Below are positions 20,766 through 57,181 of a stretch of DNA of 62,938 nt, in pieces. A program made the position numbers and the translations under genes. Every line of letters starts with the position of its first letter. Positions within the stretch are counted from its first letter, which is position 1. The notes under the pieces are model-generated. The model was not told the DNA's origin. It saw nothing but the letters and a program-made list of their open reading frames with translations, and did not search any database. The stretch is from an uncultured Bacilli bacterium (GTDB taxonomy: Bacteria; Bacillota_I; Bacilli_A; RF39; UBA660), in NCBI GenBank assembly GCA_947629235.1, contig CANRCX010000005.1:1-62938 (forward strand), read 5' to 3'.

Positions 20766-20816
20766 TTAAACTAAAGGAAAGTATTTACTTTCCTTTAGCA
20801 ATTTTATGAGGAGAAT

Positions 20817-23369: not shown

Positions 23370-23422
23370 AATGATAACTATATTTTAAATCGTATTAAAG
23401 ACACCATATATGATTATAAAAG

Positions 23423-23454
23423 CACTTTAAAGCTCTGAATTTAAAGTGTTTTTT
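23423..23454 (+). terminator. intrinsic terminator
   Basis: cactttaaa...tttaaagtg plus T6. Confidence 0.65.
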
Positions 23455-23542
23455 CATTTTATAGATATGTACACAATATTAATAGAGAGTATTAAAAGTA
23501 AAAATATGGTATAATAATTATAAATTTAAGGAGTGGTATAAA

Positions 23543-23797: not shown

Positions 23798-23799
23798 GC

Positions 23800-24846: not shown

Positions 24847-25030
24847 TAAATAGAATGATGTTATGAATACTAAAAGCAAATAGTTACCAACTAAAGTAGA
24901 AGATATTGTTAATAGTGTAGCTTTTAATGATAAAACTGTAATTAAGAAAAATCTTGCATATAATATACAATAATTATATGTATTTAACAATATATTACAT
25001 TTATATTAAAATATAAAAAATTCAAAAAAG

Positions 25031-25116
25031 ATCAACAACTGATTTTGGATTGTCAGGTGTTACTCAGTCCAAATAGGTGAGAACACCTGACAATGTTGAT
25101 GTGGTGTTCTTTTTTA
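25031..25116 (+). promoter_or_regulatory. structured RNA element: 12-bp hairpin overlapping an alternative terminator hairpin
   Basis: Three pairings: ttgtcaggtgtt (25050-25061) with aacacctgacaa (25082-25093); outer atcaaca (25031-25037) with tgttgat (25094-25100); competing gaacacc (25081-25087) with ggtgttc (25103-25109) plus T7. Confidence 0.35.
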
Positions 25117-25185
25117 TTTTTATAAGATTAGAGATATGATAAAATAATACTATTAAGAAGAAAACTATAAAAGTAGGTGGTATAT

Positions 25186-26655: not shown

Positions 26656-26834
26656 TAAAAAAGGAAATATTATCAATAAATTTATATAAATTATTATCAA
26701 AAAACATTTATAGATAGTCAAGTAAGCTATCTTTTTTTAATGTTTAGATATTTTAAAATGAAATTAACTTAAAGCAATAGGAAAAATATAAAATTATGAT
26801 ATAATTATAAATGTGAGTGAGTAAGAGGTAGTAA

Positions 26835-29800
26835 ATGAAACTGATAGATAATCATATTGAAAAATTAGGCGATGATTTAAAAAAAACAATAACTAATAAT
26901 TCTAAAATTAGAATTTGTGCATCTATATTCTCTATGTATGGATATGAAGCTTTAAAAAAAGAATTATCAAAGATTGATGAATTTAAATTTATATTCACTG
27001 ATCCTACTTTTGTAGAAAAAGCAACAAATAATAAAGAACAGAGATTATTTGAAGTTAATAATAGAAATAGAGAAAAAAGTTTAAGTGGATCACCATTTGA
27101 AGTTAGATTAAAAAATGAATTAAATGGAAAAAGTATTGCAAAAGAATGTGCAGAATGGATAAAGAAAAAAGGAAAATTTAAATCTAATATTGGTGGAGAA
27201 GCTATACAAAGATTTGTGCTTTTACAAAATGAAGCATCAGATATTATTTATACAAATATGGAAGAATTTTCTACTATTGGATTAGGATATGAAAAAGATA
27301 ATGCGATTTATATGCCTATTACTAAGATTGATGATAATTATGAATTTTCAAAAAGATATCTAGATTCATTTGAACAAATATGGAATGATGAAACACATTT
27401 AAAAGATGTTACAAATGAAGTTATAGAATTTATGTCTGACTTATATAAAGAAAATTCACCAGAATTTATTTATTACATAACTCTTTATAATATATTTACT
27501 GAATTTTTAGAAGATATATCAGAAGATGAACTAGCAAATGAAAAAACAGGATTTAAAGAATCAAAAATATGGAATTCACTTTATGAATTTCAAAAAGATG
27601 CAGTTTTAGGAATAATTAATAAATTAGAAAGATTTAATGGATGTATATTAGCAGATAGTGTTGGTTTAGGAAAAACATATACAGCCTTAGCAGTTATTAA
27701 ATATTATCAAGAAAGAAATAAAAGTATATTAGTTTTGTGTCCAAAAAAATTAAGTGAAAACTGGAATACGTTTATTAAGAATTATAAAGATAATCCATTA
27801 CAAGAAGATAGATTTAATTATGATGTATTATTTCATACAGATTTATCAAGAACACATGGAGAATCTAATGGTATGGATTTATCACGAGTTAATTGGGGTA
27901 ATTATGATTTAGTTGTTATAGATGAATCACATAATTTTAGAAATAATCAAGCAAGAAATGATAGAGAAACAAGATATGATAGACTTATGAATGAAGTTAT
28001 GAAAGCTGGGGTTAAAACAAAAGTATTAATGTTATCTGCTACACCAGTAAATAATAAGTTTAATGATTTAAAAAATCAACTTGCTTTAGCATATGAAGGT
28101 AAGACAGATAAAATAGATGAAAAAATTAGTAATACAAAATCTATAGATACTATTTTAAAAAATGCTCAAACTGTATTTAATGAATGGAGTAAATTAGATC
28201 CAAATAAAAGAACTAGTGAAGAATTATTAAGTAGACTTAATTCTAATTTTGATTTCTTTAAATTATTAGATAGTGTTACAATTGCTAGATCAAGAAAACA
28301 TATTGAAAAATATTATGATATGAATTCAATTGGTAAATTTCCAACTAGATTAAAACCTATTAGTAAGTCCCCAGAACTTACAGATATTCAAGGATTTATG
28401 TCAATTAAAGATATTGCTGAAGAATTAAATAAATTAAATATGAGTATTTATGCTCCTTTTGATTATATATTACCAAATAAACTTAGTGAATATGAAGACA
28501 TATATGATATAGAAGTTAAAGGTGGACAATCTAGTTTCCATCAAGCTGATAGAGAAAAAAGTTTACAAATTTTAATGAGAATTAATTTTTTAAAAAGATT
28601 AGAAAGTTCTGTATCTTCTTTTAGAATAACTTTAAATAAAGTTTTAAATCAAATATCATCAACTTTACAATCTATAGAAAATTTTGAAAATAGGGGAATT
28701 AATCAATCATTTGAGAATGTTGAAGTTACAAATTATAATTCAGATGAAGATATTGAAGATTTATTAGAAGACCAATTTAGTATTGGTAAAAAAGTTAAAA
28801 TTAAATTAGAAGATATGAATACAATTGGATGGAAAGAAGATTTACTTTCAGATTATAAAATATTAAAAACATTACTTTATGAAATGGAAAAAGTAACTCC
28901 TGAACATGATACAAAATTAAATGAATTAGTTAATATGATTATTGATAAAATTGATCATCCAATTAATAAAGATAATAAAAAAGTTATTATTTTTAGTGCA
29001 TTTGCAGATACAGCAGATTATATTTATAAAAGTATTGCTAATAATTTAAAAAATCATTATAATTTACAAACTTGTAAAATAACTGGTTCTGGATTTAATG
29101 AATGTACAATTGAAATGAATAAAGAATTTAATAATTTATTATTAAATTTTTCACCAAAATCAAAACATAGGGATATGTTAGATCCAAATTCAAAGAATGA
29201 TATAGATATTTTAATCGCAACTGATTGTATTTCTGAAGGACAAAATTTACAAGATTGTGATTATTTAATAAATTATGATATACATTGGAATCCTGTTAGA
29301 ATAATACAAAGATTTGGCCGTATTGATAGAATAGGATCTCTTAATGATGTTATTCAATTAGTTAATTTTTGGCCTAATATTTCTTTAGATGATTATATTA
29401 ATTTAAAAAATAGAGTAGAAAATAGAATGTTAATGTTAGATATATCAGGAACAGGTGAAGATAATGTTTTAACTAATAAATCTAGTGATATAGAATATCG
29501 TAAAGCTCAATTACAAAAGTTAAAAGAAGAAGTAGTTGATTTAGAAGATATGAATACTGGAATAAGTATTACTGATTTAGGATTAAATGATTTTAGAATG
29601 GATTTAGTTGAATATGTTAAAGAGAATGGAAATTTAGATGGAACACCATTTGGCTTACATTCAGTTGTACATGAAAATAAATCATTAGGAATAGAAAAAG
29701 GTGTAATTTATGTTTTAAAAAATATAAATAATGAAGTTAATATTGATAATATGAATCAATTACATCCATTTTATTTAGTTTATATAAAAGAAGATGGAGA

Positions 29801-30095
29801 GATACTTTCAAATCATTTAAATGTAAAAAATACATTAGATTTATTAAGAACTATGTCTAAAGGTAATACTGAACCAATAAAAACTGCTTATAATATTTTT
29901 AATGAATTTACAAATGATGGAAAAGATATGACAATGTATTCAGAATTATTAAATCAAAGTATTGATTCTATAATTAATATAAAAGAAGAAAATGATATAG
30001 ATAGTTTATTTAAATCAGGTGGTACAACAATGTTAAAAAATAATATAAAAGGTTTAGAAGATTTTGAACTTATCTCATTTATGGTGATAATATGA
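26835..30095 (+). CDS. SNF2-family helicase (1086 aa) with ~240-aa N-terminal domain of unclear function
   Basis: ADSVGLGKTYTA (I), VIDESHNFRN (II), SATPVNN (III), TDCISEGQNLQDC (V), WNPVRIIQRFGRIDRIGS (VI). Confidence 0.85.
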   Translation: MKLIDNHIEKLGDDLKKTITNNSKIRICASIFSMYGYEALKKELSKIDEFKFIFTDPTFVEKATNNKEQRLFEVNNRNREKSLSGSPFEVRLKNELNGKSIAKECAEWIKKKGKFKSNIGGEAIQRFVLLQNEASDIIYTNMEEFSTIGLGYEKDNAIYMPITKIDDNYEFSKRYLDSFEQIWNDETHLKDVTNEVIEFMSDLYKENSPEFIYYITLYNIFTEFLEDISEDELANEKTGFKESKIWNSLYEFQKDAVLGIINKLERFNGCILADSVGLGKTYTALAVIKYYQERNKSILVLCPKKLSENWNTFIKNYKDNPLQEDRFNYDVLFHTDLSRTHGESNGMDLSRVNWGNYDLVVIDESHNFRNNQARNDRETRYDRLMNEVMKAGVKTKVLMLSATPVNNKFNDLKNQLALAYEGKTDKIDEKISNTKSIDTILKNAQTVFNEWSKLDPNKRTSEELLSRLNSNFDFFKLLDSVTIARSRKHIEKYYDMNSIGKFPTRLKPISKSPELTDIQGFMSIKDIAEELNKLNMSIYAPFDYILPNKLSEYEDIYDIEVKGGQSSFHQADREKSLQILMRINFLKRLESSVSSFRITLNKVLNQISSTLQSIENFENRGINQSFENVEVTNYNSDEDIEDLLEDQFSIGKKVKIKLEDMNTIGWKEDLLSDYKILKTLLYEMEKVTPEHDTKLNELVNMIIDKIDHPINKDNKKVIIFSAFADTADYIYKSIANNLKNHYNLQTCKITGSGFNECTIEMNKEFNNLLLNFSPKSKHRDMLDPNSKNDIDILIATDCISEGQNLQDCDYLINYDIHWNPVRIIQRFGRIDRIGSLNDVIQLVNFWPNISLDDYINLKNRVENRMLMLDISGTGEDNVLTNKSSDIEYRKAQLQKLKEEVVDLEDMNTGISITDLGLNDFRMDLVEYVKENGNLDGTPFGLHSVVHENKSLGIEKGVIYVLKNINNEVNIDNMNQLHPFYLVYIKEDGEILSNHLNVKNTLDLLRTMSKGNTEPIKTAYNIFNEFTNDGKDMTMYSELLNQSIDSIINIKEENDIDSLFKSGGTTMLKNNIKGLEDFELISFMVII

Positions 30096-30697
30096 TAGAA
30101 TTACCAAAAAGATGTTTAGTAAATAGAAATATACCTAAAAAAGTTTTTTATGAAAAATTAGGTATTTCAACAAGTATTAAAGATGATTTTGTAAGTATTG
30201 TTGATAAAATTATATGGCTATACAAATTATCAGAAGATACACTAGGAATATCAAAAACAAAAGAAGTAGAAGAAATAGAAGTATTTGAAATTGATTTAAA
30301 AGAAAAAAAGATTCCTAAAAATGTTATTAGAGTAATAGCAAAAGGAATACCATATAAAATATTATTTGTGATAAAATATAATAATGATATATGTTATGGA
30401 GTCAAAATAGAAGATTTATATTTTTCTGAATGGAATGAAGAATTAGAATTCAATTTTGATGGACTTAATCTTGAAACTATATTTGAAAATATAGTTAAAA
30501 CAATTATAAAGGAAAAAGATAATAATAAAGATTTTTCTATTCTTATTGATAATAAATCAAAGAAAGAAGAATTATCAAAAAAAATTGAACAATTAAAAAA
30601 CAAGATTAAGCAAGAAAAACAATTTAATAAAAAAGTTGAATTAAATCAACAATTAAGAAAATTAGAAATTGTTATGGAGGAATTAGTAAATGAATAA
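30092..30697 (+). CDS. small accessory protein, DUF4391-like
   Basis: ATGA overlap with the SNF2 gene and 8-nt overlap with mod. The pattern EEIEVFEIDLKEKKIPKNVIRVIAKGIPYKILFVI recalls DUF4391 from memory only. Confidence 0.4.
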   Translation: MIELPKRCLVNRNIPKKVFYEKLGISTSIKDDFVSIVDKIIWLYKLSEDTLGISKTKEVEEIEVFEIDLKEKKIPKNVIRVIAKGIPYKILFVIKYNNDICYGVKIEDLYFSEWNEELEFNFDGLNLETIFENIVKTIIKEKDNNKDFSILIDNKSKKEELSKKIEQLKNKIKQEKQFNKKVELNQQLRKLEIVMEELVNE

Positions 30698-32588
30698 ATT
30701 AGACATGGAATCTGTTAATATTATAAATGGTAATATAGAAAAGATAGGAAATTTATTTCCAAATGTAATAGTGGAATCAGAAAATGGCAAAGCAATAGAT
30801 TTTGATTTATTAAAACAAGAGTTATCAGATGAAATTGTTGATGAAAGCAAAGAAAAATATCAATTAACTTGGCCAGGAAAGAAAAAATCAATATTAAATG
30901 CCAATACACCATCTAAAAATACATTAAGACCAATAAGAGAAAAATCAGTTGATTTTGATAATACACAAAATATTTATATTGAAGGAGATAATTTAGAAGC
31001 ATTAAAAATATTACAAGAATCATACTTAAATAAAATTAAATGTATTTATATTGATCCACCATATAACACAGGCAATGATTTTATTTATAATGACAATTTT
31101 GATAAAACAAAAGAAAATGAATTGTTAGAATCAGGACAAATTGATGAAGATGGCTATAGACTAGTAAGCAATAATCAATCTAATGGAAGATTTCATAGTG
31201 ATTGGTTATCAATGATGTATTCTAGATTAAAACTTGCAAGGAATTTGTTATCAAATGATGGGGCAATAATTATTAGCATAGATGTAAATGAATTAAACAA
31301 TCTTTGCAAAATTTGTGATGAAATATTTGGTGAAAAAAACTTTTTAGGAATATTCCCAAGAAAAACTACCGAACACATAAGAGTTTTAGCCGATTATGAA
31401 TTACAAAATTTGAATGATTATGTTGTAATATATTGTAAAAATTTAGAAAAAATAAAGTTAAATAAAAAAAATATAGGTGAAATTCAATATGATTACGAAG
31501 ATGATAATGGGAAATATATATTAAAGGCTTTTCAAAATTCTGGTGAAAATGGAACTAGAAAGGCAAGACCAAATTTATATTATCCTATATATTACAATGA
31601 GAAAACAAAAACATTATCTCTTGAAAAAAGCGATAATTCTATTGAGATTTTACCTCGCAAAGTCAAATCAGAAGACGGGAGATGGCTTTGGAGTAAAGAA
31701 AAATTTGTTCAAGATAACAAATTGTTAGAATATAAAAATGGCACAATACATAGAAAAGTTTACTATAATGAAGATGAAGATCAAACAAAATATGAATCAT
31801 TTAAAACGTGGCTAGATATGTATCCTAACAGACTAGGTGCTAAAAAGTTAAATGAATTGGAAATGGGAGAATATTTTGATTATTCGAAACCAGTTGATTT
31901 GATTAAATTTTTGCTTGAACTTATAATTGATAAAAATTCAATTGTTTTAGACTTTTTTAGTGGTAGTGCAACGACAGCACAAGCAGTTATGGAATTAAAT
32001 ATAGAAAAAAAGTATAATTTAAAAAACATTATGGTTCAGTTAAATGAACAGATAGATGAAAACAGTAAAGCATATATAGATGGATATAAAAATATTTGTG
32101 ATATAGGTGAAGAAAGAATTAGAAGAGCTGCAAAGAAAATTAAGGAAGAAACAAATGCAGATATTGATTATGGATTTAGAGTTTATAAAATAGATTCTTC
32201 AAATATGAAAGATGTATATTATAAACCTAATGAGTTACAACAATCACAATTGTCACTATTTGAAACTAATATAAAAGAAGATAGAACAACTGATGATTTA
32301 TTAACACAAGTAATACTTGATTTAGGGTTAACATTAGATTTAAAAATAGAAGAAAAGAAAATACTAAATAATAATGTATATTATGTAGATACTAATTCAT
32401 TGGTAGCTTGTTTTGATGATGAAATTGATATAAATATTGTTGATGAAATCTGTAAAGTTGAACCATTGAAAGTAGTATTTAAAGATTTTTCATTTAAAAC
32501 TGATAAAGATAAAATAAATTTAGAAGAAAAATTCAAAAAATTATTACCTGAAAGGGCAACTGACAAAAATTTTATAAGTATTATATAA
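30690..32588 (+). CDS. Mod-type (beta-class) N6-adenine DNA methyltransferase
   Basis: Motif IV IYIDPPYNTGNDF precedes motif I LDFFSGSATTAQAV, with a long variable region between them. Confidence 0.85.
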   Translation: MNKLDMESVNIINGNIEKIGNLFPNVIVESENGKAIDFDLLKQELSDEIVDESKEKYQLTWPGKKKSILNANTPSKNTLRPIREKSVDFDNTQNIYIEGDNLEALKILQESYLNKIKCIYIDPPYNTGNDFIYNDNFDKTKENELLESGQIDEDGYRLVSNNQSNGRFHSDWLSMMYSRLKLARNLLSNDGAIIISIDVNELNNLCKICDEIFGEKNFLGIFPRKTTEHIRVLADYELQNLNDYVVIYCKNLEKIKLNKKNIGEIQYDYEDDNGKYILKAFQNSGENGTRKARPNLYYPIYYNEKTKTLSLEKSDNSIEILPRKVKSEDGRWLWSKEKFVQDNKLLEYKNGTIHRKVYYNEDEDQTKYESFKTWLDMYPNRLGAKKLNELEMGEYFDYSKPVDLIKFLLELIIDKNSIVLDFFSGSATTAQAVMELNIEKKYNLKNIMVQLNEQIDENSKAYIDGYKNICDIGEERIRRAAKKIKEETNADIDYGFRVYKIDSSNMKDVYYKPNELQQSQLSLFETNIKEDRTTDDLLTQVILDLGLTLDLKIEEKKILNNNVYYVDTNSLVACFDDEIDINIVDEICKVEPLKVVFKDFSFKTDKDKINLEEKFKKLLPERATDKNFISII

Positions 32589-32601
32589 AGAGGTGTAATG
32601 G

Positions 32602-35600
32602 ATGAAATTAAAATTTAAGCAACAACAATATCAAGAAGATGCTGTAATGTCAGTTGTAAATTGTTTTAGTGGTGAAAAAAAAGGAAGCAGAAGAGATTTA
32701 TTATTTAGACGAGTAAGAACAATAGATGAAGGAACATTATTAGAAAGGCAAGAAGATGAAGATTTTGTTTCTTTTGGAAATCATGGCTTTAATCTTACTG
32801 AATCACAAATAAGAAATAATATAAGGAATGTTCAAAGATTAAATGATATAAATTATACAGATAATGCTGGAATTAGAGATTTTACTATTGAAATGGAAAC
32901 AGGTACCGGAAAAACATATACTTATATAAAAACTATGTATGAATTAAATAATGCTTATGGTTGGAGTAAGTTTATTGTAATGGTACCTAGTATTGCTATT
33001 CGTGAGGGTGTACATAAGTCTTTTGAAATAACACAAGATCATTTTCAAGAAATATATCATAAAAAAATTAAATTTTTTGTTTATAATTCTTCTAATATTG
33101 CTAATATAAATGATTTTGTTTCTGATGATTCTATACATGCTATGATAATTAATTATCAAGCTTTTAATACTGAAGAAAAATCAAAAGGAGTTAATAAAAG
33201 AATTTATAAATATTTAGATGAATTACAATCAAGAAGACCAATAGATGTTATTAATAGTGTTAATCCAATATTAATTTTAGATGAACCTCAAAAAATTGGT
33301 GATAAAACAGAAGAAAAATTAAAAGAATTTAAACCATTATTTACAATTCGTTATTCTGCAACTCATAGAAAAGGAAAAGAATACAATAAAATTTATAGAT
33401 TAGATGCAATAGATGCATATAATCAAAAATTAGTAAAAAAGATAAATGTTAAAGGTATAGAAATACTACATAATAAATCAGAAGATACTTATTTATTTTT
33501 AGATAGTGTTAATATCAGTCAAAAGCATGATCCAGAAGCTATTATGGAAATAGAAGTAAAATCATCAAATGGTGTGTCAAGAAAGCTTGTAAAATTAAAA
33601 GCAGGTGATGACCTTTGGTCAAAATCTGGTGAGTTACAACAATATAAAGGATTTGTAGTAAGTGAAATAGATGGAAGATATGATCAATATGATAAAGTTT
33701 TTTTTACTAATGGAGTCGAAATACAAGTTGGGCAAGCATTTGGTGATATAGATGAATCCCATTTAATTAGAATTCAAATTAGAGAAACTATACGTTCACA
33801 TTTTGAAAAAGAAAAAGAACTTCATAAATTAGGAATAAAAGTATTATCATTATTCTTTATTGATGAAGTGTCAAAATATAAATATTATGAAGATGGTATT
33901 GCTTTAAAAGGGGAGTATGCTAAAATATTTGAAGAAGAATATACTAAAGCATTAAATGATTATAGAACATTATTTGATGATGATTATACAAAATATTTAG
34001 ATTCATTTGATACAGGTAAAATTCATGCTGGATATTTTTCAATAGATAAAAAAGGTCATGAAATTGATCCAAGTATAAATGATAAGAAGGAATATTTAAG
34101 TTTTGATGAAGATGCTTATGATTTAATTATGAAAGATAAAGAAAGACTTTTATCATTAGAAGAACCTGTTAGATTTATATTCTCACACTCTGCATTAAGA
34201 GAAGGTTGGGATAATCCAAATATATTTCAAATATGTACTTTAAAACATAGCAATTCAGAAATAAGTAAAAGACAAGAAATAGGTCGTGGTCTTCGTATTT
34301 GTGTTAATAATGATGGAGAAAGAATGGATTATAATGTATTAGAAAATGATTTTTATAATATTAATACATTAACTATTATTGCTAGTGAATCTTATGATAG
34401 TTTTGCTAAAGCACTGCAAACAGAAATAGCAGAAACTTTAACTGCAAGACCAAAAAACTTTACTGCTGAATCATTTATTGGTAAAATTTTAACTAATGAA
34501 TCTGGTGAACATTATGAATTTACACAAGAACATTTTCAAGATTTATTAATATTCAATGTAATGAATGGATATGTAGATCAAAAAGATAATTATAAAATAA
34601 CTGACAAGTTTATTGAAGATATGGAAAATGGAAAATTAGAAGTAATGCCTGCTTTAGTTGGATTTGAAGAACAAGTATCTAGTTTAATGAAGAGATTATA
34701 CTCAACTAATAATACTAAACTTGTTAACAATGAAGGAAAACATAATATCACAAGTCTTGTTCCTAATAAAAATTTTATGAAAAAAGAATTTCAAGATTTA
34801 TGGAATAAAATTAATGTTAAAACAATTTATGAAGTTGATTTTGATACAAAAGAATTGATAGATAAATCAGTACAAGCTATAAATGAAAGATTTAATATTT
34901 CTAAAATGCAAGTTAAAATAACTGAAGGTGAACAAAAAGATAAAATGACTTCTGTATCAGTTAACAGTGGCAGTTCGATGACAGAAGGAAGAACTAAAAC
35001 TGAAACAATTGAAGAGTTTTCTCCATCTCAAATTGAATATGATTTAATAGGTGAAATAACCAGAGATACAGGACTAACAAGAAAAACAGTAATAAATATT
35101 TTGACTAAAATTTCACCTGAAAAATTTAATTATTATCAATATAATCCAGAAGAATTTATAAGAAAAGTTTGTAATTTAATAAATCAAGAAAAAGCAACAA
35201 CTATAATTGATGGTATAACATATCATAAAACAGAACAAAAATATTCAAATGATATATTTACTATAAATAATGTTCAAGGTGAATTAGGTGAAAATGCAAT
35301 AGATGTTAAAAAACATATATATGATTATTTAGTTACAGATTCTAAAAATGAAACTAATTTTGCAAGAAAACTAGAATCTGGTGAAGTAACTGTGTATGCA
35401 AAACTACCTAATGGATTTAAGATACCAACTCCAGTTGGAAATTATAATCCAGATTGGGCTATAGTATTTGATAATCCTACATTTAAATATGTGTATTTTG
35501 TTGCTGAAACAAAAGGAAGTATGGATTCACTTGAATTAAGAGATGTTGAAAAAGCAAAAATAGAATGTGCTAAGAAACATTTTAAATGTATTAGTAATGA

Positions 35601-35661
35601 TGAAGTTAAATATGATGTTGTAGATAGTTATGAATCATTAATTAATATATTAACTGCATAA
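32602..35661 (+). CDS. Type III restriction Res-type helicase-endonuclease
   Basis: ETGTGKTYT (I), LILDEPQK (II), SALREGWDNPNIFQICTL, QEIGRGLRI (VI), C-terminal PD-(D/E)xK NPDWAIVF...FVAETKG. Confidence 0.85.
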   Translation: MKLKFKQQQYQEDAVMSVVNCFSGEKKGSRRDLLFRRVRTIDEGTLLERQEDEDFVSFGNHGFNLTESQIRNNIRNVQRLNDINYTDNAGIRDFTIEMETGTGKTYTYIKTMYELNNAYGWSKFIVMVPSIAIREGVHKSFEITQDHFQEIYHKKIKFFVYNSSNIANINDFVSDDSIHAMIINYQAFNTEEKSKGVNKRIYKYLDELQSRRPIDVINSVNPILILDEPQKIGDKTEEKLKEFKPLFTIRYSATHRKGKEYNKIYRLDAIDAYNQKLVKKINVKGIEILHNKSEDTYLFLDSVNISQKHDPEAIMEIEVKSSNGVSRKLVKLKAGDDLWSKSGELQQYKGFVVSEIDGRYDQYDKVFFTNGVEIQVGQAFGDIDESHLIRIQIRETIRSHFEKEKELHKLGIKVLSLFFIDEVSKYKYYEDGIALKGEYAKIFEEEYTKALNDYRTLFDDDYTKYLDSFDTGKIHAGYFSIDKKGHEIDPSINDKKEYLSFDEDAYDLIMKDKERLLSLEEPVRFIFSHSALREGWDNPNIFQICTLKHSNSEISKRQEIGRGLRICVNNDGERMDYNVLENDFYNINTLTIIASESYDSFAKALQTEIAETLTARPKNFTAESFIGKILTNESGEHYEFTQEHFQDLLIFNVMNGYVDQKDNYKITDKFIEDMENGKLEVMPALVGFEEQVSSLMKRLYSTNNTKLVNNEGKHNITSLVPNKNFMKKEFQDLWNKINVKTIYEVDFDTKELIDKSVQAINERFNISKMQVKITEGEQKDKMTSVSVNSGSSMTEGRTKTETIEEFSPSQIEYDLIGEITRDTGLTRKTVINILTKISPEKFNYYQYNPEEFIRKVCNLINQEKATTIIDGITYHKTEQKYSNDIFTINNVQGELGENAIDVKKHIYDYLVTDSKNETNFARKLESGEVTVYAKLPNGFKIPTPVGNYNPDWAIVFDNPTFKYVYFVAETKGSMDSLELRDVEKAKIECAKKHFKCISNDEVKYDVVDSYESLINILTA

Positions 35662-35673
35662 AAAAGGAGTAAT

Positions 35674-36306
35674 ATGAAAAAAGTTTTAAAAATTACTTTA
35701 ATTGTTATAGGAATTATAATGGGAATTATCTTAATTGATACACTACAAGCTATAATATTTGATAATAGTCCATTATTAAAAATAAGGGATAATTTTGATG
35801 CTGGAAGTATTGATTATATTGATAAAGGTTTATTTGTAAATCATTATCATTGTATTAATGATGAGAATGTTACAACATGGAAAAAAACAAAATTTTCTTG
35901 TTCAATAGAAGAAAATTTAGAAGAATCAACTTATAATATTAATAATGAAATAATAACTACAAGTATTAAGGAAAATACACTAACAAGTTCTTCATTAACA
36001 TTAATTTTTCATAATAATACAAATGAAACATATTATTATGGAGCAGGTAGTGGAATTATAGAAAAAGAAATAGATGGAAAATGGTATAAACTTAATACTA
36101 TCGAAAATGAAAATATTATAGCTATAGCTTATAATATACTTCCAAATACTAGTAAAGAATTTGAAAGTAATTTTGGTAATATTTATGGAAAATTAGCAAA
36201 AGGAAAATATAGAATTATTAAATCATTTTTTAGTGAAAAAGATTTTCATAAAGATGGATTAGCAGAATCTAATATTTATTCAGCTGTTGAATTTGAAATA
36301 AAGTAA
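35674..36306 (+). CDS. N-terminally membrane-anchored extracytoplasmic protein, unknown function
   Basis: TM VLKITLIVIGIIMGIILI, then a beta-rich domain. Confidence 0.55.
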   Translation: MKKVLKITLIVIGIIMGIILIDTLQAIIFDNSPLLKIRDNFDAGSIDYIDKGLFVNHYHCINDENVTTWKKTKFSCSIEENLEESTYNINNEIITTSIKENTLTSSSLTLIFHNNTNETYYYGAGSGIIEKEIDGKWYKLNTIENENIIAIAYNILPNTSKEFESNFGNIYGKLAKGKYRIIKSFFSEKDFHKDGLAESNIYSAVEFEIK

Positions 36307-36317
36307 TTTATTAATAA

Positions 36318-36340
36318 AAGATAGTTAAAACTATCTTTTT
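36318..36340 (+). terminator. intrinsic terminator closing the R-M-like operon
   Basis: aagatagtt/aactatctt plus T5. Confidence 0.6.
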
Positions 36341-36344: not shown

Positions 36345-36373
36345 TTGACACTTTTTATAACTTGTGGTATAAT
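36345..36373 (+). promoter_or_regulatory. consensus promoter TTGACA-17-(TGg)TATAAT for sigma paralogue 1
   Basis: Hexamers at 36345-36350 and 36368-36373 with TG at 36365-36366. Confidence 0.65.
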
Positions 36374-36419
36374 CTAGTCATTTAAAAAGAAGACATTATT
36401 ACATAAAAAGGGGGTTTTT

Positions 36420-37289
36420 ATGGAAGAAGAATATTATGATTATATGAATAATAATTCAGGTGTTGAACTATACATTAAAGAGCTTATGGAAATTCCTATG
36501 CTAACAGAAGAAGAAAAACAAGAATTACCAATTTTAATATCAAAAGGTGATATTAAAGCTAAAAAAAGATTTGTTGAAGCTAATTTAAGACTTGTTGTAT
36601 ATGAAGTAAATAATTTTATGAAAAATTATTTTATACAAATGAATTTATTTGAAGAATTAATTAGTGTAGGAAATGAAGCTTTAGTTAAAGCAGTAGAAAC
36701 ATTTGATTATAAAAAGGGAATAAAATTTTCAACATATGCGATTAAATTAATTGATAATAAAATATATAGTTATTATTTACAAAATACATATAAATTTAAA
36801 TTTTCTCACAATTTTTATCATGATCTTATGGTTATAGAAAAATATTTAGAAAATGAAAAATTAAATAATAAAAACTATGTAAATATTGATGAAATATCTA
36901 AAAATACTGGTATAAGTTATAAAACTATTTGTATAATTTTTGATATTTTAAAACCAGTAGTATATTTAGATAAACCAGCAAAGGATGAAGATGATTGTAC
37001 TGTTGGTGATTTAATTGAGGATGAAAGAGTAAATGTTGATGAAAAAGCTAAGTATTTACATGATTTTTATAAAGTAGTTATTAATAGTGATAGAATTACT
37101 AAAAGACAATTAAAAATATTATTATATAGAACTGGATTTTATAATAATAGAGTTTATTCATTAAAAGAATTATCTAAAATGTTTAATATTACTCCAAGTG
37201 GTGTAAATTCTGTTTATAAAAGTAGTATTAAAAAGTTATTATTAGACTCTAAAGTATTAAGTTATGCTCCAGATTCTTATAAGATATAA
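36420..37289 (+). CDS. sigma-70 family paralogue 1 (289 aa, divergent, lacks the shared N-terminal domain)
   Basis: Region 2 ANLRLVVYEV and KFSTYA; region 4 SLKELSKMFNITPSGVNSVYKSSIKKL. Confidence 0.7.
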   Translation: MEEEYYDYMNNNSGVELYIKELMEIPMLTEEEKQELPILISKGDIKAKKRFVEANLRLVVYEVNNFMKNYFIQMNLFEELISVGNEALVKAVETFDYKKGIKFSTYAIKLIDNKIYSYYLQNTYKFKFSHNFYHDLMVIEKYLENEKLNNKNYVNIDEISKNTGISYKTICIIFDILKPVVYLDKPAKDEDDCTVGDLIEDERVNVDEKAKYLHDFYKVVINSDRITKRQLKILLYRTGFYNNRVYSLKELSKMFNITPSGVNSVYKSSIKKLLLDSKVLSYAPDSYKI

Positions 37290-37291
37290 TA

Positions 37292-37320
37292 TTGATTTTT
37301 AAAGACTTTTATGTTACAAT
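37292..37320 (+). promoter_or_regulatory. promoter TTGATT-17-(TGt)TACAAT for paralogue 2
   Basis: Hexamers at 37292-37297 and 37315-37320. Confidence 0.5.
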
Positions 37321-37345
37321 CTATTGCGAATATTCGGAGGGATTT

Positions 37346-38653
37346 ATGGAAAAAAATAATTATATTAATGATTTGAGTGAATTTATAAACTCAAATTTTG
37401 AAAGTAGTGATGATTTAAAGATAAATGTTAAAAATATTAGGAATTTATTCAGTTATGTAAGTTATAATAATCCAAATATTGAATTTTCTGTTTTAGATGC
37501 AGAATTATTACTTATAAATTGTCCTTCACTTAGTAAAACAATTAAAACAGTTAAAAGTCATAAAGAACTAAATTCAATATTTAGTGGAAGTGAAAATGAA
37601 ATATTTAAAGATTTATATAATAATTTAATTGAAGCTATTAGTATAGCTGATAAAAAAGAAGAATATTTAAATTCATTAGAAGATGATATTTCATATAATG
37701 CTTATGAAAGAAGAAGTAAAACTGTTAGTGAAGATATTTTTAATTATTATCTTAAAGAAATATCTAAAAGACCACTACTTAGTCCCGAAGAAGAAAAAAT
37801 TTTAGCATATGAAATTAGAAATGGTAATGAAAATGCTAAAATTAGATTTATTGAATCAAATTTACGTTTAGTAGTTAGTATTGCTAAAAGATATACTAAT
37901 CGTGGACTTGATATATTAGATTTAATTGAAGAAGGTAATATAGGTTTAATGATGGCAGTTGATAGATTTGATCCAGATAAGGGATATAAATTTTCAACAT
38001 ATGCAACATATTGGATAAGACAAGCTATGACTCGTTCTATAGCAAAATATGGAAGATCAATAAGAATATCAGTAGATGCAACATATCAATTAAATAGAAT
38101 TAACCGTATTCAAAGATATTTTAAAGATGAATTACAAAGAGAAGCAACTGATGAAGAATTATCTTCAGTTTTAGGTCTATCTCGTGCTAGAATTAAAGAA
38201 TTAAAAGAATTACCTGAAGACTCAATATCTTTAAATGCACCAGTAGGAGAAGATAAAGATACTACTATTATGGATTATGTAGCCGCAGAAGGAAATTTTG
38301 AAGAAGATTTAATTAATGAAATATCTACTGGTGAATTTATGGAAATATTTAATAAAGTAAATCTATCTCCAAAAGAAAGAAAAGTTCTTTTATTAAGAGC
38401 AGGATATTTTGATGAAAAAGAAAGAACTCTAGAAGAAATAGGGGATATGTATGGTGTTACAAGAGAAAGAATTAGACAAGTTGAAGCAAAAGCACTAAAA
38501 AAAGTAAGATCAGACTATGAAGTTAAGAAATTTATTGATAATAGTAGATTATATGTACAAGATTATATAGCACAAAATAAATCTAAAAAAGCTGCCTCTT
38601 TAACAAATTATATAAATAATACAAATATGAGATTACAAAAGAAAAAGAATTAA
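37346..38653 (+). CDS. RpoD-like sigma-70 paralogue 2 with novel N-terminal domain and C-terminal tail
   Basis: [74 protein letters not shown]; GGAGGG SD before ATG 37346. Confidence 0.85.
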   Translation: MEKNNYINDLSEFINSNFESSDDLKINVKNIRNLFSYVSYNNPNIEFSVLDAELLLINCPSLSKTIKTVKSHKELNSIFSGSENEIFKDLYNNLIEAISIADKKEEYLNSLEDDISYNAYERRSKTVSEDIFNYYLKEISKRPLLSPEEEKILAYEIRNGNENAKIRFIESNLRLVVSIAKRYTNRGLDILDLIEEGNIGLMMAVDRFDPDKGYKFSTYATYWIRQAMTRSIAKYGRSIRISVDATYQLNRINRIQRYFKDELQREATDEELSSVLGLSRARIKELKELPEDSISLNAPVGEDKDTTIMDYVAAEGNFEEDLINEISTGEFMEIFNKVNLSPKERKVLLLRAGYFDEKERTLEEIGDMYGVTRERIRQVEAKALKKVRSDYEVKKFIDNSRLYVQDYIAQNKSKKAASLTNYINNTNMRLQKKKN

Positions 38654-38688
38654 ATAATAGTGATAATTTAATAAAAATATACAAAAAC

Positions 38689-38717
38689 TTGATTTTTTTG
38701 TTAAATTGTGTTATAAT
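38689..38717 (+). promoter_or_regulatory. promoter TTGATT-17-(TGt)TATAAT for paralogues 3-5
   Basis: Hexamers at 38689-38694 and 38712-38717. Confidence 0.6.
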
Positions 38718-38752
38718 TTAAGACATTATTAAAAAGGGGGTAAAGGAGAATT

Positions 38753-40147
38753 ATGAGTGAATTTGATGATATGGATCAATTTGGTTATAATGAGAATGAT
38801 CTTGATAATATGGATATTATTGCAATTGATGAAATAATTAATTTTATAAAAACTAATTTTGTTTCAAGTCCAAATATTTCAGTTAATATAAATAATATTA
38901 AAAAATTAATAAAATTTTTAAATGAAAAAAACTTTTCAAATTTAACAGCAGTAGAAGCTCAAACTCTATTAAAAGAATGCCCAAAATTAAAAGATACAAT
39001 TGTTAAAATAAGAAAAGAAAAAGATCTTGATAATATGTTTAGAAAAAGTGAAAATGAAGAATTTAAAACACTTTATATTAATATGTGTAATTTTTTAGAT
39101 AACAAAGTATCAATTAAGGGATATGAAGACATTGATTATGAATCAGATGAAAATGAAGAAAAATCAAATAGAACTTATTATGAAACATTTACTGATGATA
39201 TAGTTAAACAATATTTAAATGAAATAGCTAGAATTCCTTTACTTACACCAGAAGAAGAAAAGGATTTAGCTATAAAAATCTCAAATGGTGATGAAGAAGC
39301 TAGAAAAAAATTCTATGATGCTAATTTACGTTTACCAGTTAGTATTGCTAAAAAATATATTGGAAAAGGAGTTGCATTTTTAGATTTAATACAAGAAGGA
39401 AATATGGGACTTGAAAAAGCAGTTGATAAATTTGATATAAATAAAGGATATAAATTTTCAACATATGCAACTTGGTGGATAAGACAAGCAATAACAAGAG
39501 CTATAGCTGATCAAGGAAGAACTATTAGAATACCTGTTCATGCTTATGAGTCAATTAATAAGATGAAAAGATTTCAAAGAAGTTATTATGAAGAAAATCA
39601 AGTAGAAGCATCTGATAAAGAAATAGCTAAACATATGGGTGTATCAGAAGAAACTATAAAAGAATGGAAAAAATCAGCTCAAGAATTAGTTTCATTAGAT
39701 TCTCCAGTTGGAGATGAAGAAGATAGCACTATAATGGATTTTTATGTTAGTGATGATAATTTAGAAGATGATATAGTAAAACAATTATCAAATGAAGAAT
39801 TTATGAAAGTATTTTTCTCAGTAAAACTAGCTCCAAGAGAAAGAGAAGTTCTATTATTAAGAAATGGTTACTATGATAATAGAGTTTATACTTTAGAAGA
39901 AATTGGTGCTAAATATAAAATTACTAGAGAAAGAGTAAGACAAATAGAAGCAAAAGCACTTAGAAAATTAAGACAAAATAAAGATATTAGAAGATTTTCT
40001 TCAAATCCAGGATATTATGCACAAGATTATAGAAGCGATAGTGTATATAAAAAGATTAGATTTGATGAAGAAGATTATCAAAGAGGAAATGAAATAGATA
40101 AAGAATTAGTAAGGAAATACTATAAATACAACAAGAGGAAATATTAA
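38753..40147 (+). CDS. RpoD-like sigma-70 paralogue 3, closest to the housekeeping SigA consensus
   Basis: [31 protein letters not shown] and [28 protein letters not shown], but [12 protein letters not shown]. Carries the shared N-terminal domain. Confidence 0.85.
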
Positions 40148-40161
40148 AAGGGGTTTTTAAA

Positions 40162-41316
40162 ATGGAAAATATAGAAGAACTAGAAAATAATTTCCTTTTT
40201 GTTAATAATAGTGTATTAGAATATATAAAGAAAAATTTTAAAGATGATAATAAACTATCTTCATATGTTAACAATATTAAAGGATTATTTAATTTTATTA
40301 GAGTAAATAATTTAGATGATTTAATAGTAGATATAGATTATTTAGTAGAAAAATCATCTGTTTTAAAAAAGACTATTGATAATATTAATAATAATAAAGA
40401 ATTAAAAAATGTATTTGTTAATAATGAAGAAGAGAGTATTTCTTCTTTCTTTAAAAGATTTTTATCTTATAGTGAAAAAGAACTTGATGATATTAGTACA
40501 ACTTCTAATGATATAGTTCATGACTATTTAAAACAAATTAAATTTCCATTATTAAGTGATGAAGAATTAAGAGAACTTTATAAAAAGAAAAATGCAGGGG
40601 ATGAAAAAGCAAGAGAAAAGATAATAGAAAGTAATTTGCGTTTAGTAGTTAGTGTTGCAAAAAGATATATGGATAGAGGATTTTCATTTATGGATATAAT
40701 TGGATATGGAAATATTGGATTAATTATTGCTGTTGATAGATTTGATATAAATAAAGGATTTAAATTCTCAACATATGCAACATATTGGATTAAACAATCA
40801 ATAATGCGTTCTATAGAAAATTATTCAAGAATAGTAAGACTTCCATCATATTTACATAATGATGTACAAAACTTTAAATATGTATCAAATAGTTTCTATT
40901 ATAAAAATGGAAGATATCCAACTGAAGAAGAACTTAGTAAATTAATGAATAAAAGTCTTAATGAAATAAATAGAATATTAAAAGTAAAACAAGGAATACT
41001 TTATTTAGATGAACCAGTAGGTGAAGATAAAGATGCAACATTTGGAGATTATATTCCAGATGATATTGATTTAGAAGATGAAAACATATCTAAAGAATAT
41101 TATAGTGAGTTTATGGAAGACTTTAATAAGTCAAACTTAAGAGAAAAAGAAAAACAAGTATTATTATTACGAGTAGGATATTATGATGATAAATCAAAAA
41201 CACTAGAAGAAATAGGGGATATGTATGGTGTTACTAGAGAAAGAATAAGACAAATACAAGCTGAAAGTTTAAGAAAATTAAGACATAATAAAACTATTCA
41301 AAAATATAATAATTAA
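40162..41316 (+). CDS. RpoD-like sigma-70 paralogue 4
   Basis: SNLRLVVSVAKRY, FKFSTYATYWIKQSIMR, TLEEIGDMYGVTRERIRQIQAESLRKLR; 14-nt gap to paralogue 3. Confidence 0.85.
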   Translation: MENIEELENNFLFVNNSVLEYIKKNFKDDNKLSSYVNNIKGLFNFIRVNNLDDLIVDIDYLVEKSSVLKKTIDNINNNKELKNVFVNNEEESISSFFKRFLSYSEKELDDISTTSNDIVHDYLKQIKFPLLSDEELRELYKKKNAGDEKAREKIIESNLRLVVSVAKRYMDRGFSFMDIIGYGNIGLIIAVDRFDINKGFKFSTYATYWIKQSIMRSIENYSRIVRLPSYLHNDVQNFKYVSNSFYYKNGRYPTEEELSKLMNKSLNEINRILKVKQGILYLDEPVGEDKDATFGDYIPDDIDLEDENISKEYYSEFMEDFNKSNLREKEKQVLLLRVGYYDDKSKTLEEIGDMYGVTRERIRQIQAESLRKLRHNKTIQKYNN

Positions 41317-41333
41317 TTATATGAGGTAATAAT

Positions 41334-42539
41334 ATGACATCTAATAAACATATTAACATAATAGAAAATAAAGACTTAGAAAAAATAAGATTATTTATAG
41401 AAGATAATTTTATAGATAGTAAAGATATATCAATAAATATTGTTAATTTAAAGAAACTAATTACTTTTTTAAATAAAAATAATATAAAACTAAATTATTA
41501 TGATTTAAGAAGTTTATTAGAATATTCTTATAAATTAGAAAATACAATAAAAGTAATTAAACAAAGAAAAATAATTAGCAATATTTTTGAAAATATGGAT
41601 AGTGAAGTAAAAAGAATATATAAATATTCAATAAATATTATAGATAAAAATAATTCCAAATCAGATAAAAAAAGTAATAAAATTTATAAAGAGTTTAACG
41701 AATATCAAAGAAACACACGTCATAAAGAAAGATTAACTTATGAAAAACAAAATGAATTATTATTAAGAATTAGTAATGGTGACAAAGAAGCAAAAAATGA
41801 ATTGATAATGTCATATCTTCCTTTAGCTTTAGGTATTGCTGGAAAATATAAATATGCTTGGAATTACGAAGATTTAGTACAAATAGGCACTATTGGATTG
41901 ATTGATGCTATAGAAAATTATGATCCTAAAAAGGGTAAAAATTTCTCACGTTATATAAGTGCATATATTGAAGGTACTATATGTAATAATTTATATAGTG
42001 ATATTAGATTAAGTCCAATAGTATATATAAAAATGAAATTAATGATAAAAATAATGTTAGAAAATTATTTCAAATATGATAAAGTTTTAAGTGAAGAAGA
42101 ACTATCAAAAATTAGTAATTTAAAAATTGAAACAATAGAAAAATATAAAAAAATATTTAAATTACTTGAAAAAGATTCTTCATTTAATAGATTGAATCTT
42201 AATGATGAACTAGTTGATTATATAGAAGAAGATAAATTAATAGATCAAGAATATTATAATGAATTAAATAAATTATTTGATAGTGTTTCTCTTACTTCAA
42301 AAGAACAAAAAGTAATTAAATTAATATATTTTGAAAATATAGAAAATGAAGCTGAAGTAGCTAGAATACTTGGAATAACTAGAGAAAGAGTAAGACAATT
42401 AAAATTAAAAGCATTAAGAAAACTTAGATATGATTTAGAAATTAGAAAATATACAGGACTTAATAATAGATTTATTGAAGATTATAATCAATCAAATAAG
42501 TTTAAAAAAGCTAGAACAAAGTTAACTTATAATAAATAA
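41334..42539 (+). CDS. sigma-70 paralogue 5 (divergent region 2, conserved region 4.2, shared N-terminal domain)
   Basis: IGTIGLIDAIENYDPKKGKNFSRYISAYI and [26 protein letters not shown]. Confidence 0.75.
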   Translation: MTSNKHINIIENKDLEKIRLFIEDNFIDSKDISINIVNLKKLITFLNKNNIKLNYYDLRSLLEYSYKLENTIKVIKQRKIISNIFENMDSEVKRIYKYSINIIDKNNSKSDKKSNKIYKEFNEYQRNTRHKERLTYEKQNELLLRISNGDKEAKNELIMSYLPLALGIAGKYKYAWNYEDLVQIGTIGLIDAIENYDPKKGKNFSRYISAYIEGTICNNLYSDIRLSPIVYIKMKLMIKIMLENYFKYDKVLSEEELSKISNLKIETIEKYKKIFKLLEKDSSFNRLNLNDELVDYIEEDKLIDQEYYNELNKLFDSVSLTSKEQKVIKLIYFENIENEAEVARILGITRERVRQLKLKALRKLRYDLEIRKYTGLNNRFIEDYNQSNKFKKARTKLTYNK

Positions 42540-42550: not shown

Positions 42551-42602
42551 ATTTTGTTTACTTTAAATGATTAATTTGATAAAATTATACTGAGGTAATA
42601 AT

Positions 42603-43682
42603 ATGAGAAGTGTATATATACATATTCCTTTTTGTAAAAGTATATGTTCTTATTGTGATTTTTGTAAATTCATATATACAGATAAATATGCAAGTTTATA
42701 TTTAGAAATGCTAGAAAAAGAAATAAAAGAATATTATGAAAATGATAAAGTAAGAACAATATATATTGGTGGTGGTACTCCATCTAGTTTAAGTATTAAT
42801 AATTTAATTAAATTATTTAAAATAATTCAAATATTTGATACTTCTTCTTTAGAAGAATTTACATTTGAATGTAATATAAATGATATTAATGAAGAATTAT
42901 TAATATTACTTAAAAATAATAAAGTAAATAGAATTAGTATTGGAGTAGAAAGTTTTAATCCTAAAAATTTAGAATTTTTAAGTAGAGTACATAATAAAGA
43001 AGATATATTTAAGAAGATTAAACTTACTAAAAAATATTTTGATAATATTAATGTTGATTTAATCTATGCACTTCCAACAGAGAATATGAATGTATTAAAA
43101 AGTGATATAAAAAATATATTAAAACTTGGTATTAATCATATTAGTACATACTCATTAATAATAGAAGAACATACTATGATTTATAATGATAAAGTAAAAC
43201 CAATAGATGAAGATTTGGATGCTAAAATGTATAAATATATATGTAAGAAACTTAAGAAAAATGGTTTTATTCATTATGAAGTTAGTAATTTTGCTAAAAA
43301 AGGATATGAAAGTAAACACAATTTAACATATTGGGATAATCTTGAATATTATGGTTTTGGACTAGGTGCTCATGGTTATACTAATAGTATGAGATATGAA
43401 AATACAAGAAATTTCAATAAATATTTAAAAGGTGAATTTAGATTTAATGAATTACTTGTATCAAATAGAGAAGAAATAGAAAATGAATTAATACTTGGTC
43501 TTAGAAAATTAAATGGTGTTAATATTGAAAACTTTAAAAAGAAATTTCATAAAGATATATTTAAAGAATTTAAACTAGATACCGCTATTAAAAAAGGTTA
43601 TTTAATAAATAAAGATGGACAAATATATATAAAAGAAGATAAAATATATATAATGAATGAAATAATAAATATGATTATGTAA
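42603..43682 (+). CDS. hemW: radical-SAM HemW/HemN-like protein
   Basis: HIPFCKSICSYCDFC (CxxxCxxC) and GGGTPS. Confidence 0.8.
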   Translation: MRSVYIHIPFCKSICSYCDFCKFIYTDKYASLYLEMLEKEIKEYYENDKVRTIYIGGGTPSSLSINNLIKLFKIIQIFDTSSLEEFTFECNINDINEELLILLKNNKVNRISIGVESFNPKNLEFLSRVHNKEDIFKKIKLTKKYFDNINVDLIYALPTENMNVLKSDIKNILKLGINHISTYSLIIEEHTMIYNDKVKPIDEDLDAKMYKYICKKLKKNGFIHYEVSNFAKKGYESKHNLTYWDNLEYYGFGLGAHGYTNSMRYENTRNFNKYLKGEFRFNELLVSNREEIENELILGLRKLNGVNIENFKKKFHKDIFKEFKLDTAIKKGYLINKDGQIYIKEDKIYIMNEIINMIM

Positions 43683-57172: not shown

Positions 57173-57181
57173 GAGGACTTT

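Follow-up and report, generated by a model that had tools for sequence, protein, structure and literature searches.

A probable family of accessory SigA-derived sigma factors arrayed in tandem upstream of hemW in uncultured Bacilli

Here we present the analysis of a 62,938-base chromosomal contig of an uncultured Bacilli bacterium (CANRCX010000005.1, assembly GCA_947629235.1; the whole stretch is called the window below), which has a G+C content of 22% and carries nearly all of its genes on the + strand. Our analysis indicates that five of these genes, S1 to S5, probably form a lineage-restricted and copy-number-variable array of accessory sigma factors, which derive from the primary sigma factor SigA, resemble the group 2 sigmas and have a new N-terminal domain (the N-domain) in place of region 1.1. 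Primary-type sigmas are among the most conserved bacterial proteins, and by textbook accounts their duplication is rare and slow. Cyanobacteria and actinobacteria are known to have additional sigmas of the primary-like kind. A literature search returned no description of tandem primary-like sigma arrays, of the N-domain, or of fast-evolving SigA derivatives in Bacilli. The array and its downstream anchor are laid out as follows.

Positions 36420-37289, + strand: S1, 289 amino acids (aa); Pfam Sigma70_r2.
Positions 37346-38653, + strand: S2, 435 aa, its open reading frame (ORF) open upstream to TTG 37292; Pfam r1_2, r2, r3 and r4.
Positions 38753-40147, + strand: S3, 464 aa, the most SigA-like member; Pfam r1_2, r2, r3 and r4.
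Positions 40162-41316, + strand: S4, 384 aa, with the N-domain, the extended tail being absent; Pfam r2, r3 and r4.
Positions 41334-42539, + strand: S5, 401 aa, with the N-domain; Pfam r2 and r4.
Positions 42603-43682, + strand: hemW (radical S-adenosylmethionine heme chaperone), the downstream anchor of the array slot; NCBIfam TIGR00539, 297 bits against a cut-off of 205.

An earlier reading of this DNA, made from the letters alone (the sequence-only reading), had proposed five successive same-strand sigma-70 genes at 36420-42539, and the five + strand ORFs, all matching Sigma70_r2 (PF04542), bear this out. In the Pfam scan Sigma70_r4 (PF04545) is present in S2-S5, Sigma70_r3 lies above its gathering score in S2-S4 and slightly under it in S1 (21.7 against 25.3 bits), and Sigma70_r1_2 is matched by S2 and S3, while region 4 of S1 is detected solely as a generic helix-turn-helix (HTH). 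All five proteins exceed the cut-off of the superfamily model TIGR02937. The near-consensus primary-sigma motifs reported for the second to fourth paralogues, such as TLEEIG..Y..TRER.RQ, with NLRLPVS in S3, are found in the ORFs and in the alignment, and S3 retains the -10, extended -10 and -35 contact residues when aligned with B. subtilis SigA. S4 has changes at -10 and core-binding positions (Y425F, W433Y, R436K, T440M, Q406G and E407Y, in what we take, here and below, to be the E. coli sigma-70 numbering of the core and -10 contacts). S5 is strongly diverged in regions 2.3 and 2.4, retains the 4.2 motif TRERVRQ and is the fastest-evolving member of the array. S1 is without the N-terminal block in the alignment; its region 2.4 has diverged, with K and L at the equivalents of W433 and W434, and its region 4.2 reads TPSGVNS where TRERIRQ is expected. 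It had been described as degenerate, but is better called divergent, as it has an intact ORF, orthologues in two other genomes (62-65% identity) and a ratio of nonsynonymous to synonymous substitution rates (dN/dS) of 0.38-0.50.

As for the overall layout, S2 consists approximately of the N-domain (aa 1-100), an acidic linker, regions 1.2-4.2 and a basic C-terminal tail, and S3 of the N-domain (aa ~20-118), an acidic linker and a basic C-terminal tail of 54 aa. A shared tail after region 4.2 had been claimed for S2, S3 and S5; the motifs Y.QDY (S2 and S3) and FIEDY (S5) are indeed there and conserved in the orthologues, but the Y.QDY part aligns with LKDFL at the canonical SigA C-terminus, and only the basic extension beyond it is extra. 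Neither dnaG nor an anti-sigma partner is found in or beside the array in the ORF list and the annotation, in accordance with the sequence-only reading. The array proteins are nameless in public collections, where each is on only 1-3 contigs; the protein of S2 is the public entry P0004.

The N-domain is located as follows.

Positions 38807-39106, + strand: structured N-domain core in S3, aa ~19-118; six predicted helices.
Positions ~37346-37645, + strand: N-domain equivalent in S2.
Positions ~40162-40461, + strand: N-domain equivalent in S4.
Positions ~41334-41627, + strand: N-domain equivalent in S5.

That an N-terminal domain is common to S2-S5 had been read from the alignment of the letters, and it is well supported by BLASTP of the N-terminal pieces alone (E = 1e-13 for S3 against S5, 2e-9 for S2 against S4). 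The shared block is ~100 aa long and precedes the acidic linker and region 1.2. The AlphaFold model of S3 aa 1-130 gives a compact six-helix domain, with a block-mean predicted local distance difference test (pLDDT) score of ~76-94 over residues ~20-120. The N-domain is unmatched in Pfam, PHROGs and PADLOC, where only generic matches to the sigma core appear, and a sequence-profile search of the PDB gives nothing significant. Foldseek against the PDB reaches at best E ~1 with template modelling (TM) scores <= 0.36 and no region 1.1 structure among the 50 matches listed, and against the viral structures of BFVD the best E is 0.4; taken together, the best values of the structure and PDB-profile searches are E ~0.03-1. 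Regarding region 1.1 itself, PF03979 has no match at E <= 0.01 in S1-S5, and hhalign of the N-domain with region 1.1 of the lineage's own SigA returns a probability of 2.8%. The claim that the N-domain replaces region 1.1 therefore holds in that Pfam, Foldseek, the PDB profiles and hhalign detect no relationship of the N-domain with region 1.1 or any other known domain, and the description of it as a novel domain replacing region 1.1 stands at the limit of detection. Nor is it the ordinary region 1.1 of this lineage, an outcome that the sequence-only reading had allowed for, since the real SigA of the lineage has an ordinary region 1.1. The two also differ in net charge, which is -5 to +5 for the N-domain and -15 to -20 for the first ~95-100 residues of SigA (region 1.1 with its acidic linker). 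The conserved positions of the N-domain are mostly hydrophobic, and this points to a structural role or to protein binding more than to an enzyme.

On the whole, the N-domain is rare and is found mostly in sigma factors. An exhaustive HMMER search with its profile, among 1.84 billion representative proteins, gives only 26 matches, most of about sigma-factor length, and 18 of the 19 matches retrieved are sigma-70 proteins or fragments. This search was used in place of a word-indexed profile search, which gave one 57-aa fragment, probably due to a limitation of the index, while the profile search with full-length array sigmas was dominated by canonical SigA. In passing, three public entries of canonical SigA (P0029, P0031 and P0035) have segments that are duplicated internally, probably through misassembly, and their profile scores are thereby raised above those of genuine relatives.

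The housekeeping sigma factor of this clade is a separate, canonical and highly conserved SigA, which we located by searching the reference genomes for the universal SigA motif, using a DNA pattern biased towards AT. Two species-level relatives of the window, L001 and L002, carry arrays at the same place. In the metagenome-assembled genome (MAG) that holds the L002 array (Lapin-028__bin55), contig CANRBS010000012 has a dnaG (609 aa) and sigA (364 aa) pair, with a G+C content of 0.238 against 0.228 for the L002 array contig; this SigA has a normal region 1.1 (GFLTYEQIAKK) and the canonical C-terminus RHPSRAKKLKDFLIE. It is the one MAG whose neighbouring gene was read, and there SigA follows dnaG. 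The MAGs SUG1194 and CASFKI likewise have a canonical SigA (L133 and L136) together with N-domain sigma arrays (L215 and L231) smaller than that of the window, and the occurrence of both in these two further MAGs makes a binning artefact unlikely. A dnaG-rpoD locus elsewhere in the genome had been proposed as a check, and such a locus is now seen on another contig of the sister MAG, the window genome itself being represented by one contig only. With canonical SigA and the array coexisting in three related MAGs, the notion that primary-sigma motifs occur only here, or that S3 is the housekeeping SigA, is not upheld.

It is thus very improbable that the array holds the housekeeping sigma, with S3 as a SigA of lineage-specific N-terminus and the others as recent sigA duplicates. 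The motifs of S3 are identical or nearly identical to those of B. subtilis SigA, its best NCBIfam match is RpoD, and no second sigA is present within the 63-kb window, all of which would fit such a view. However, besides the canonical SigA of the sister MAG and of the two further array-bearing MAGs, S3 orthologues are only 64-67% identical (72-79% in the sigma-2 region) where neighbouring genes reach 90-96%, the true SigA keeps 91-94% identity among relatives that are much further apart, and the slot of the array is empty in several relatives. In addition, with the curated RpoD models the best score is that of S3, 339 bits (NF006666, cut-off 572), followed by S2 with 280, S4 with 260, S1 with 123 and S5 with 72, none reaching a cut-off, and over regions 1.2-4 the identity of S2-S4 to the lineage's SigA is 42-51%.

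We then present an overall view of the slot, based on a survey of 80 reference loci anchored on hemW. In relatives with at least 65% hemW identity the number of N-domain sigma genes in the slot upstream of hemW is 0, 1, 2, 4, 5 or 6, and none is found in the more distant hemW loci (<65% identity) of the 80. The upstream bound of the slot is a gerM-like gene, with aspS also there in the window's subclade. The synteny with hemW is seen in L001, L002, L007, L215, L217, L219, L221, L223, L228 and L231, while in L230 four copies lie ~4 kb upstream of hemW without adjoining it. The five genes of the L002 array and the six of L001 are all intact. The sixth member in L001 (6358-7761), a SigA-like protein of 467 aa between S5 and hemW, has the N-domain and a long basic tail and groups with the S2/S3 clade. 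On the metagenome contig L007, four N-domain sigmas are followed by hemW and an ATP-binding cassette (ABC) gene, with the N-domain only ~21% identical to that of S3. In a neighbour-joining tree the array sigmas form one clade apart from SigA, in which S1-S5 are orthologous in the three closest genomes and other lineages have expansions of their own. Our analysis shows that the array genes go back to a single SigA-like ancestor, where a near-neutral six-helix domain of ~100 aa took the place of region 1.1, and that the copy number of the slot varies through both old and lineage-specific duplications.

The clade bearing these arrays consists of very AT-rich uncultured gut Bacilli, probably of the order RF39, members of which are reported to keep peptidoglycan and are predicted to sporulate with unusual regulation (PMC10868615). 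Ahead of the array in a distant relative (L006, 1719-5783) are three small membrane proteins of 156-159 aa, paralogues in tandem with a common C-terminal ...KKYQDMSTSEKLEYLRKERD..., and an 852-aa secreted glycine-rich protein matching Pfam ALK_LTK_GRD.

The array sigmas also evolve at an unusual rate. We compared the window with L001 and L002, which have the same array order upstream of hemW and two ABC genes (abc1 and abc2). Amino-acid identities are 50-67% for the array sigmas, with one pair at 82%, and 90-96% for hemW, abc1 and abc2; for the two genes upstream of a neighbouring island (see below), the window and L002 are 91% (the gerM-like gene) and 95% (aspS) identical. The dN/dS of the array sigmas is 0.38-0.87, that of the flanking genes 0.09-0.18, and the ranges of the synonymous rate (dS) broadly overlap; dS being only modestly raised in the array, the excess lies at protein-changing sites. 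The array sigmas thus change 5-10 times faster than their neighbours at protein-altering sites. Among more distant MAGs, the same genome pairs have identities of 91-94% for SigA, 67-74% for hemW and 32-43% for the best-matching array sigmas. The acceleration is spread over all domains: the sigma-2 identity is 69-84% in S2-S4 and 52-56% in S5, and the N-domain identity between orthologues is 48-61%, except for the S4 pair of L001 and L002 (84%). S5 has a dN/dS of 0.57-0.87, and in its region 4, as well as in the linkers, the ratio exceeds 1 over short stretches. The contacts with core polymerase (Q406, E407 and N409) and with the -10 element (Y425, W433, W434, R436, Q437 and T440) differ between paralogues and also between orthologues, while the 4.2 motif RER.RQ is retained in S2-S5. 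The S4 orthologues of L001 (3963-5147) and L002 (11419-12597) are 82% identical with a dS of 0.16 against ~0.40 in flanking genes, and this low dS suggests a recent exchange or gene conversion of S4 between the lineages.

Such rates raise the question of whether the copies are redundant duplicates drifting to loss, non-functional or barely functional under relaxed constraint and without distinct regulons, which we consider unlikely. The high dN/dS (0.4-0.9) with stretches above 1 is what such drift would give, the empty slot of several relatives suggests that the genes are dispensable, and residues that are near-invariant in sigma factors vary here between orthologues. On the other side, every ORF is intact in the window and L002 (five of five each) and in L001 (six of six), the duplications are older than the split of these three genomes and yet every copy has been kept, and the whole-gene dN/dS is below 1 for every array gene. 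Furthermore, the core residues of the N-domain, the promoters and the ribosome-binding sites are conserved, and near-identical copies recur across independent metagenome samples.

We return to the reading of the array as accessory, SigA-derived sigmas with a new N-terminal domain, against which several points have to be weighed. The neighbour-joining tree is built from distances, and where it puts the long branches of S1 and S5 may be artefactual. A dN/dS of 0.4-0.9 fits relaxed constraint as well as diversifying selection, and does not separate the two. That the window organism has a separate SigA we infer from the three related MAGs, and MAG binning can err. S3 retains all canonical promoter-contact residues, so that some overlap with housekeeping function is possible. 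The same hhalign comparison that gave 2.8% also aligns 16 columns locally with the final helix of region 1.1 (P = 0.016), and an extremely diverged, enlarged region 1.1 is a possible origin of the N-domain. Finally, the role proposed below for the N-domain is wholly conjectural.

With regard to expression, the consensus scan gives the following promoters on the + strand, of which the third is weakly evidenced.

Positions 36345-36373, + strand: promoter P1 upstream of S1; TTGACA, 17-nt spacer, TGgTATAAT, with 12 of 12 consensus positions and the extended -10 TG.
Positions 38689-38717, + strand: promoter P2 in the S2-S3 gap; TTGATT, 17-nt spacer, TGtTATAAT, conserved in L001 and L002.
Positions 37292-37320, + strand: possible internal promoter for S2; TTGATT, 17-nt spacer, TGtTACAAT.

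P1 lies 47 nt upstream of S1, its hexamers and TG are conserved in L001 and L002, and the homology with these relatives begins at about the same place (window 36333 for L001, 36343 for L002). Each of the five genes is preceded by a ribosome-binding site (Shine-Dalgarno sequence), and the start of S2 is most likely ATG 37346, judging from its GGAGG, rather than TTG 37292. A terminator scan of the array found no convincing site and one weak intragenic candidate only. After both promoters stands a GACATTAT box, 18 nt past the -10 hexamer of P1 and 4 nt past that of P2 (window 36374-36400 and 38718-38735), which could be a shared operator or leader element of the two promoters. L001 has it conserved at both promoters; of the two copies in L002, the one at P2 is GACATTTAT-like and that at P1 degenerate. 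S5 and hemW have the same translation-start context, TGAGGTAATAATATGA (window 41319-41336 and 42588-42605), which may be the footprint of a tandem-copy insertion ahead of hemW.

From these features a tentative mechanism can be drawn. Given the consensus matches of P1 and P2, the array would be transcribed from them by the SigA holoenzyme, and its products would be competitors of SigA for core polymerase. Having kept the -35 and most -10 contacts, S2-S4 might read SigA-like promoters with shifted preferences, and S5 and S1, in which the -10 determinants are changed (in S1 those for -35 too), might read different ones. The N-domain could assume the regulatory role of region 1.1, through auto-inhibition or partner binding, and such a role would account for the lack of a linked anti-sigma gene. 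A bolder view, doubtful at present, is that the N-domain is a built-in sensor or auto-inhibitor, making these proteins "one-component" primary-like sigmas that need no anti-sigma, and that their tandem expansion, their turnover in copy number and their fast change at the residues binding core polymerase and promoters come from an arms race and not from mere redundancy, the opponents being, for instance, phage proteins by which SigA is inhibited or hijacked. If true, this would add a new way in which sigma factors diversify in gut bacteria of reduced genome.

Below we compare the array with known sigma groups. Group 1, the SigA/RpoD of Bacillota, gives the best model matches, and S3 is identical to it in the -10, extended -10 and -35 contact residues. 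The array differs from group 1 in having no region 1.1 (PF03979), in scoring below the RpoD cut-offs, in lacking linkage to dnaG and in its poor conservation between species. Mycobacterium tuberculosis reportedly has an essential primary SigA with a lineage-specific, non-classical region 1.1 N-terminus that probably has a function of its own; here, unlike in that case, the unusual N-terminus is on accessory paralogues, and the primary sigma keeps a normal region 1.1. Group 2 is the closest, represented by SigB-E of cyanobacteria, HrdA, HrdC and HrdD of Streptomyces and SigB of Corynebacterium. Like these, the array is derived from the primary sigma with regions 1.2-4.2 kept and has no dedicated anti-sigma. 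It would also resemble them in coexisting with a housekeeping sigma, as seen in the three related MAGs, and in being dispensable, as the empty slots in relatives suggest. The likeness over regions 1.2-4.2, including the 2.4 and 4.2 helices, holds for S2-S4 and not for S1 and S5, which have drifted to group-3-like DNA-recognition regions. Region 1.1 is truncated or absent in group 2, while S2-S5 have the conserved six-helix domain instead. Group 2 genes are, as far as is known, normally dispersed, whereas the array is in tandem at one locus, has a copy number that differs among close species (0 to 6) and evolves unusually fast. We know of no description of group 2 sigmas in small-genome gut Bacilli.

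None of the five proteins reaches the curated NCBIfam cut-offs for RpoD, RpoS, the sporulation sigmas, FliA or MzaA. With the group 3 models (bits against cut-off), S1 scores 81 against 299 for SigK and 75 against 372 for SigG, and S5 84 against 190 for FliA_WhiG and 65 against 321 for SigF. The extracytoplasmic function (ECF) sigmas do not fit either, in view of region 3 in S1-S4, region 1.2 in S2 and S3, lengths of 289-464 aa and the absence of an anti-sigma-like neighbour. It may be asked whether the five genes are a re-invented sporulation or developmental cascade replacing sigma H, F, E, G and K, since the sigma count is five, a gerM-like gene flanks the slot, and S1 and S5 have a group-3-like region 2.4 with weak matches to the SigK, SigE, SigG, SigF and FliA models. 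This is extremely improbable: the sporulation-model scores are far under the cut-offs and weaker than or equal to the RpoD and RpoS scores, the array members cluster together next to SigA, and a core developmental cascade would not tolerate 0 to 6 copies among close relatives. For RF39, genes serving the canonical activation of sigma-E and sigma-G, spoIIGA among them, have been noted (PMC10868615).

Immediately upstream of the array is an island. The window matches L002 up to a tRNA-Arg gene (TCT, 18427-18503) and resumes at 36343, so that the ~18 kb between are an insertion absent from L002, which at this site has one uncharacterised minus-strand gene of 460 aa. The contents of the island are listed below.

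Positions 18427-36340, island: HTH_3 regulator, ABC ATPase with FtsX-like permease, SWIM protein, BspA-type leucine-rich repeat protein.
Same island, continued: SNF2/DISARM-DrmD-like helicase (1086 aa), DUF4391, methyltransferase (632 aa), type III restriction-modification endonuclease (1019 aa), Big_14 membrane protein.

The sequence-only reading placed the array directly downstream of a restriction-modification-like island, and the position stands; the link does not, because L002 has the array without the island and the adjacency is coincidental. This bears on the view that a mobile element or phage carries the array as cargo, that is, a take-over or defence module tied to the restriction-modification/SNF2 island, or an anti-phage sigma of the MZA type. 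In its favour are the ~18-kb island, inserted next to tRNA-Arg and directly upstream of the array, with its SNF2/DISARM-like, DUF4391, methyltransferase and type III Res genes, the variable copy number, a fast evolution that would fit an arms race, and the matches of the sigma cores to the MzaA model and to the phage sigma family phrog_351. Still, we judge it quite improbable. In L002 the array is at the same place with the island absent, the homology blocks stopping at tRNA-Arg and restarting at P1; the hemW synteny is conserved across many species, and the array has the G+C content of its flanks. The N-domain is unmatched in PHROGs and PADLOC, and tblastn with it finds no match in phage and plasmid collections; a scan of IMG/VR viral contigs with full-length S3 matched the sigma core only. 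MzaA of the MZA anti-phage system is similar in that a sigma-70 core is fused to a non-canonical N-terminal part, and the core is the only PADLOC match of the array. This match covers profile positions ~390-710, with 82-286 bits against a cut-off of 800, and the N-terminal region of ~400 aa and the partner mza genes are absent from the array. Among the annotated neighbours, no MZA component, integrase or phage structural family is matched. Of the three explanations offered earlier, a diversifying paralogue family and a set of alternative primary-like sigmas therefore fit best, while a transcription take-over module of a mobile island does not, given an array that sits upstream of hemW in island-free relatives and an N-domain not found in the phage and plasmid collections searched.

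The immediate neighbours of the array are the Big_14-domain protein and hemW. Elsewhere the window has ordinary housekeeping genes, among them sbcCD, trmB, proS, infC, aspS, mutS and rnhC together with ABC transporters and a two-component system. At 16365-16578 a T-box leader (106 bits with Rfam RF00230) precedes a 595-aa ORF that corresponds to aspS in L002, and an IS1182-family transposase gene is at 745-2181 (367 bits against a cut-off of 270). The GC skew falls from ~+0.3 to ~0 at 57000-60000, a stretch around rnhC (58188-59135), which is the one sizeable gene on the minus strand; in the rest of the window the skew is uniformly positive and the genes are co-oriented.

On the whole, this clade keeps up to six SigA-derived copies in tandem at one fixed site, with region 1.1 swapped for a domain that looks unrelated. 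The true SigA is nearly invariant, and the copies outpace ordinary genes several-fold in their evolution. If the copies are active, the locus would represent a natural experiment in how sigma-70 can be rewired in its promoter specificity, its binding to core and its N-terminal regulation. The N-domain is a candidate new protein family and a target for structural work, and the locus may explain how transcription programmes diversify in small-genome, regulator-poor gut bacteria.

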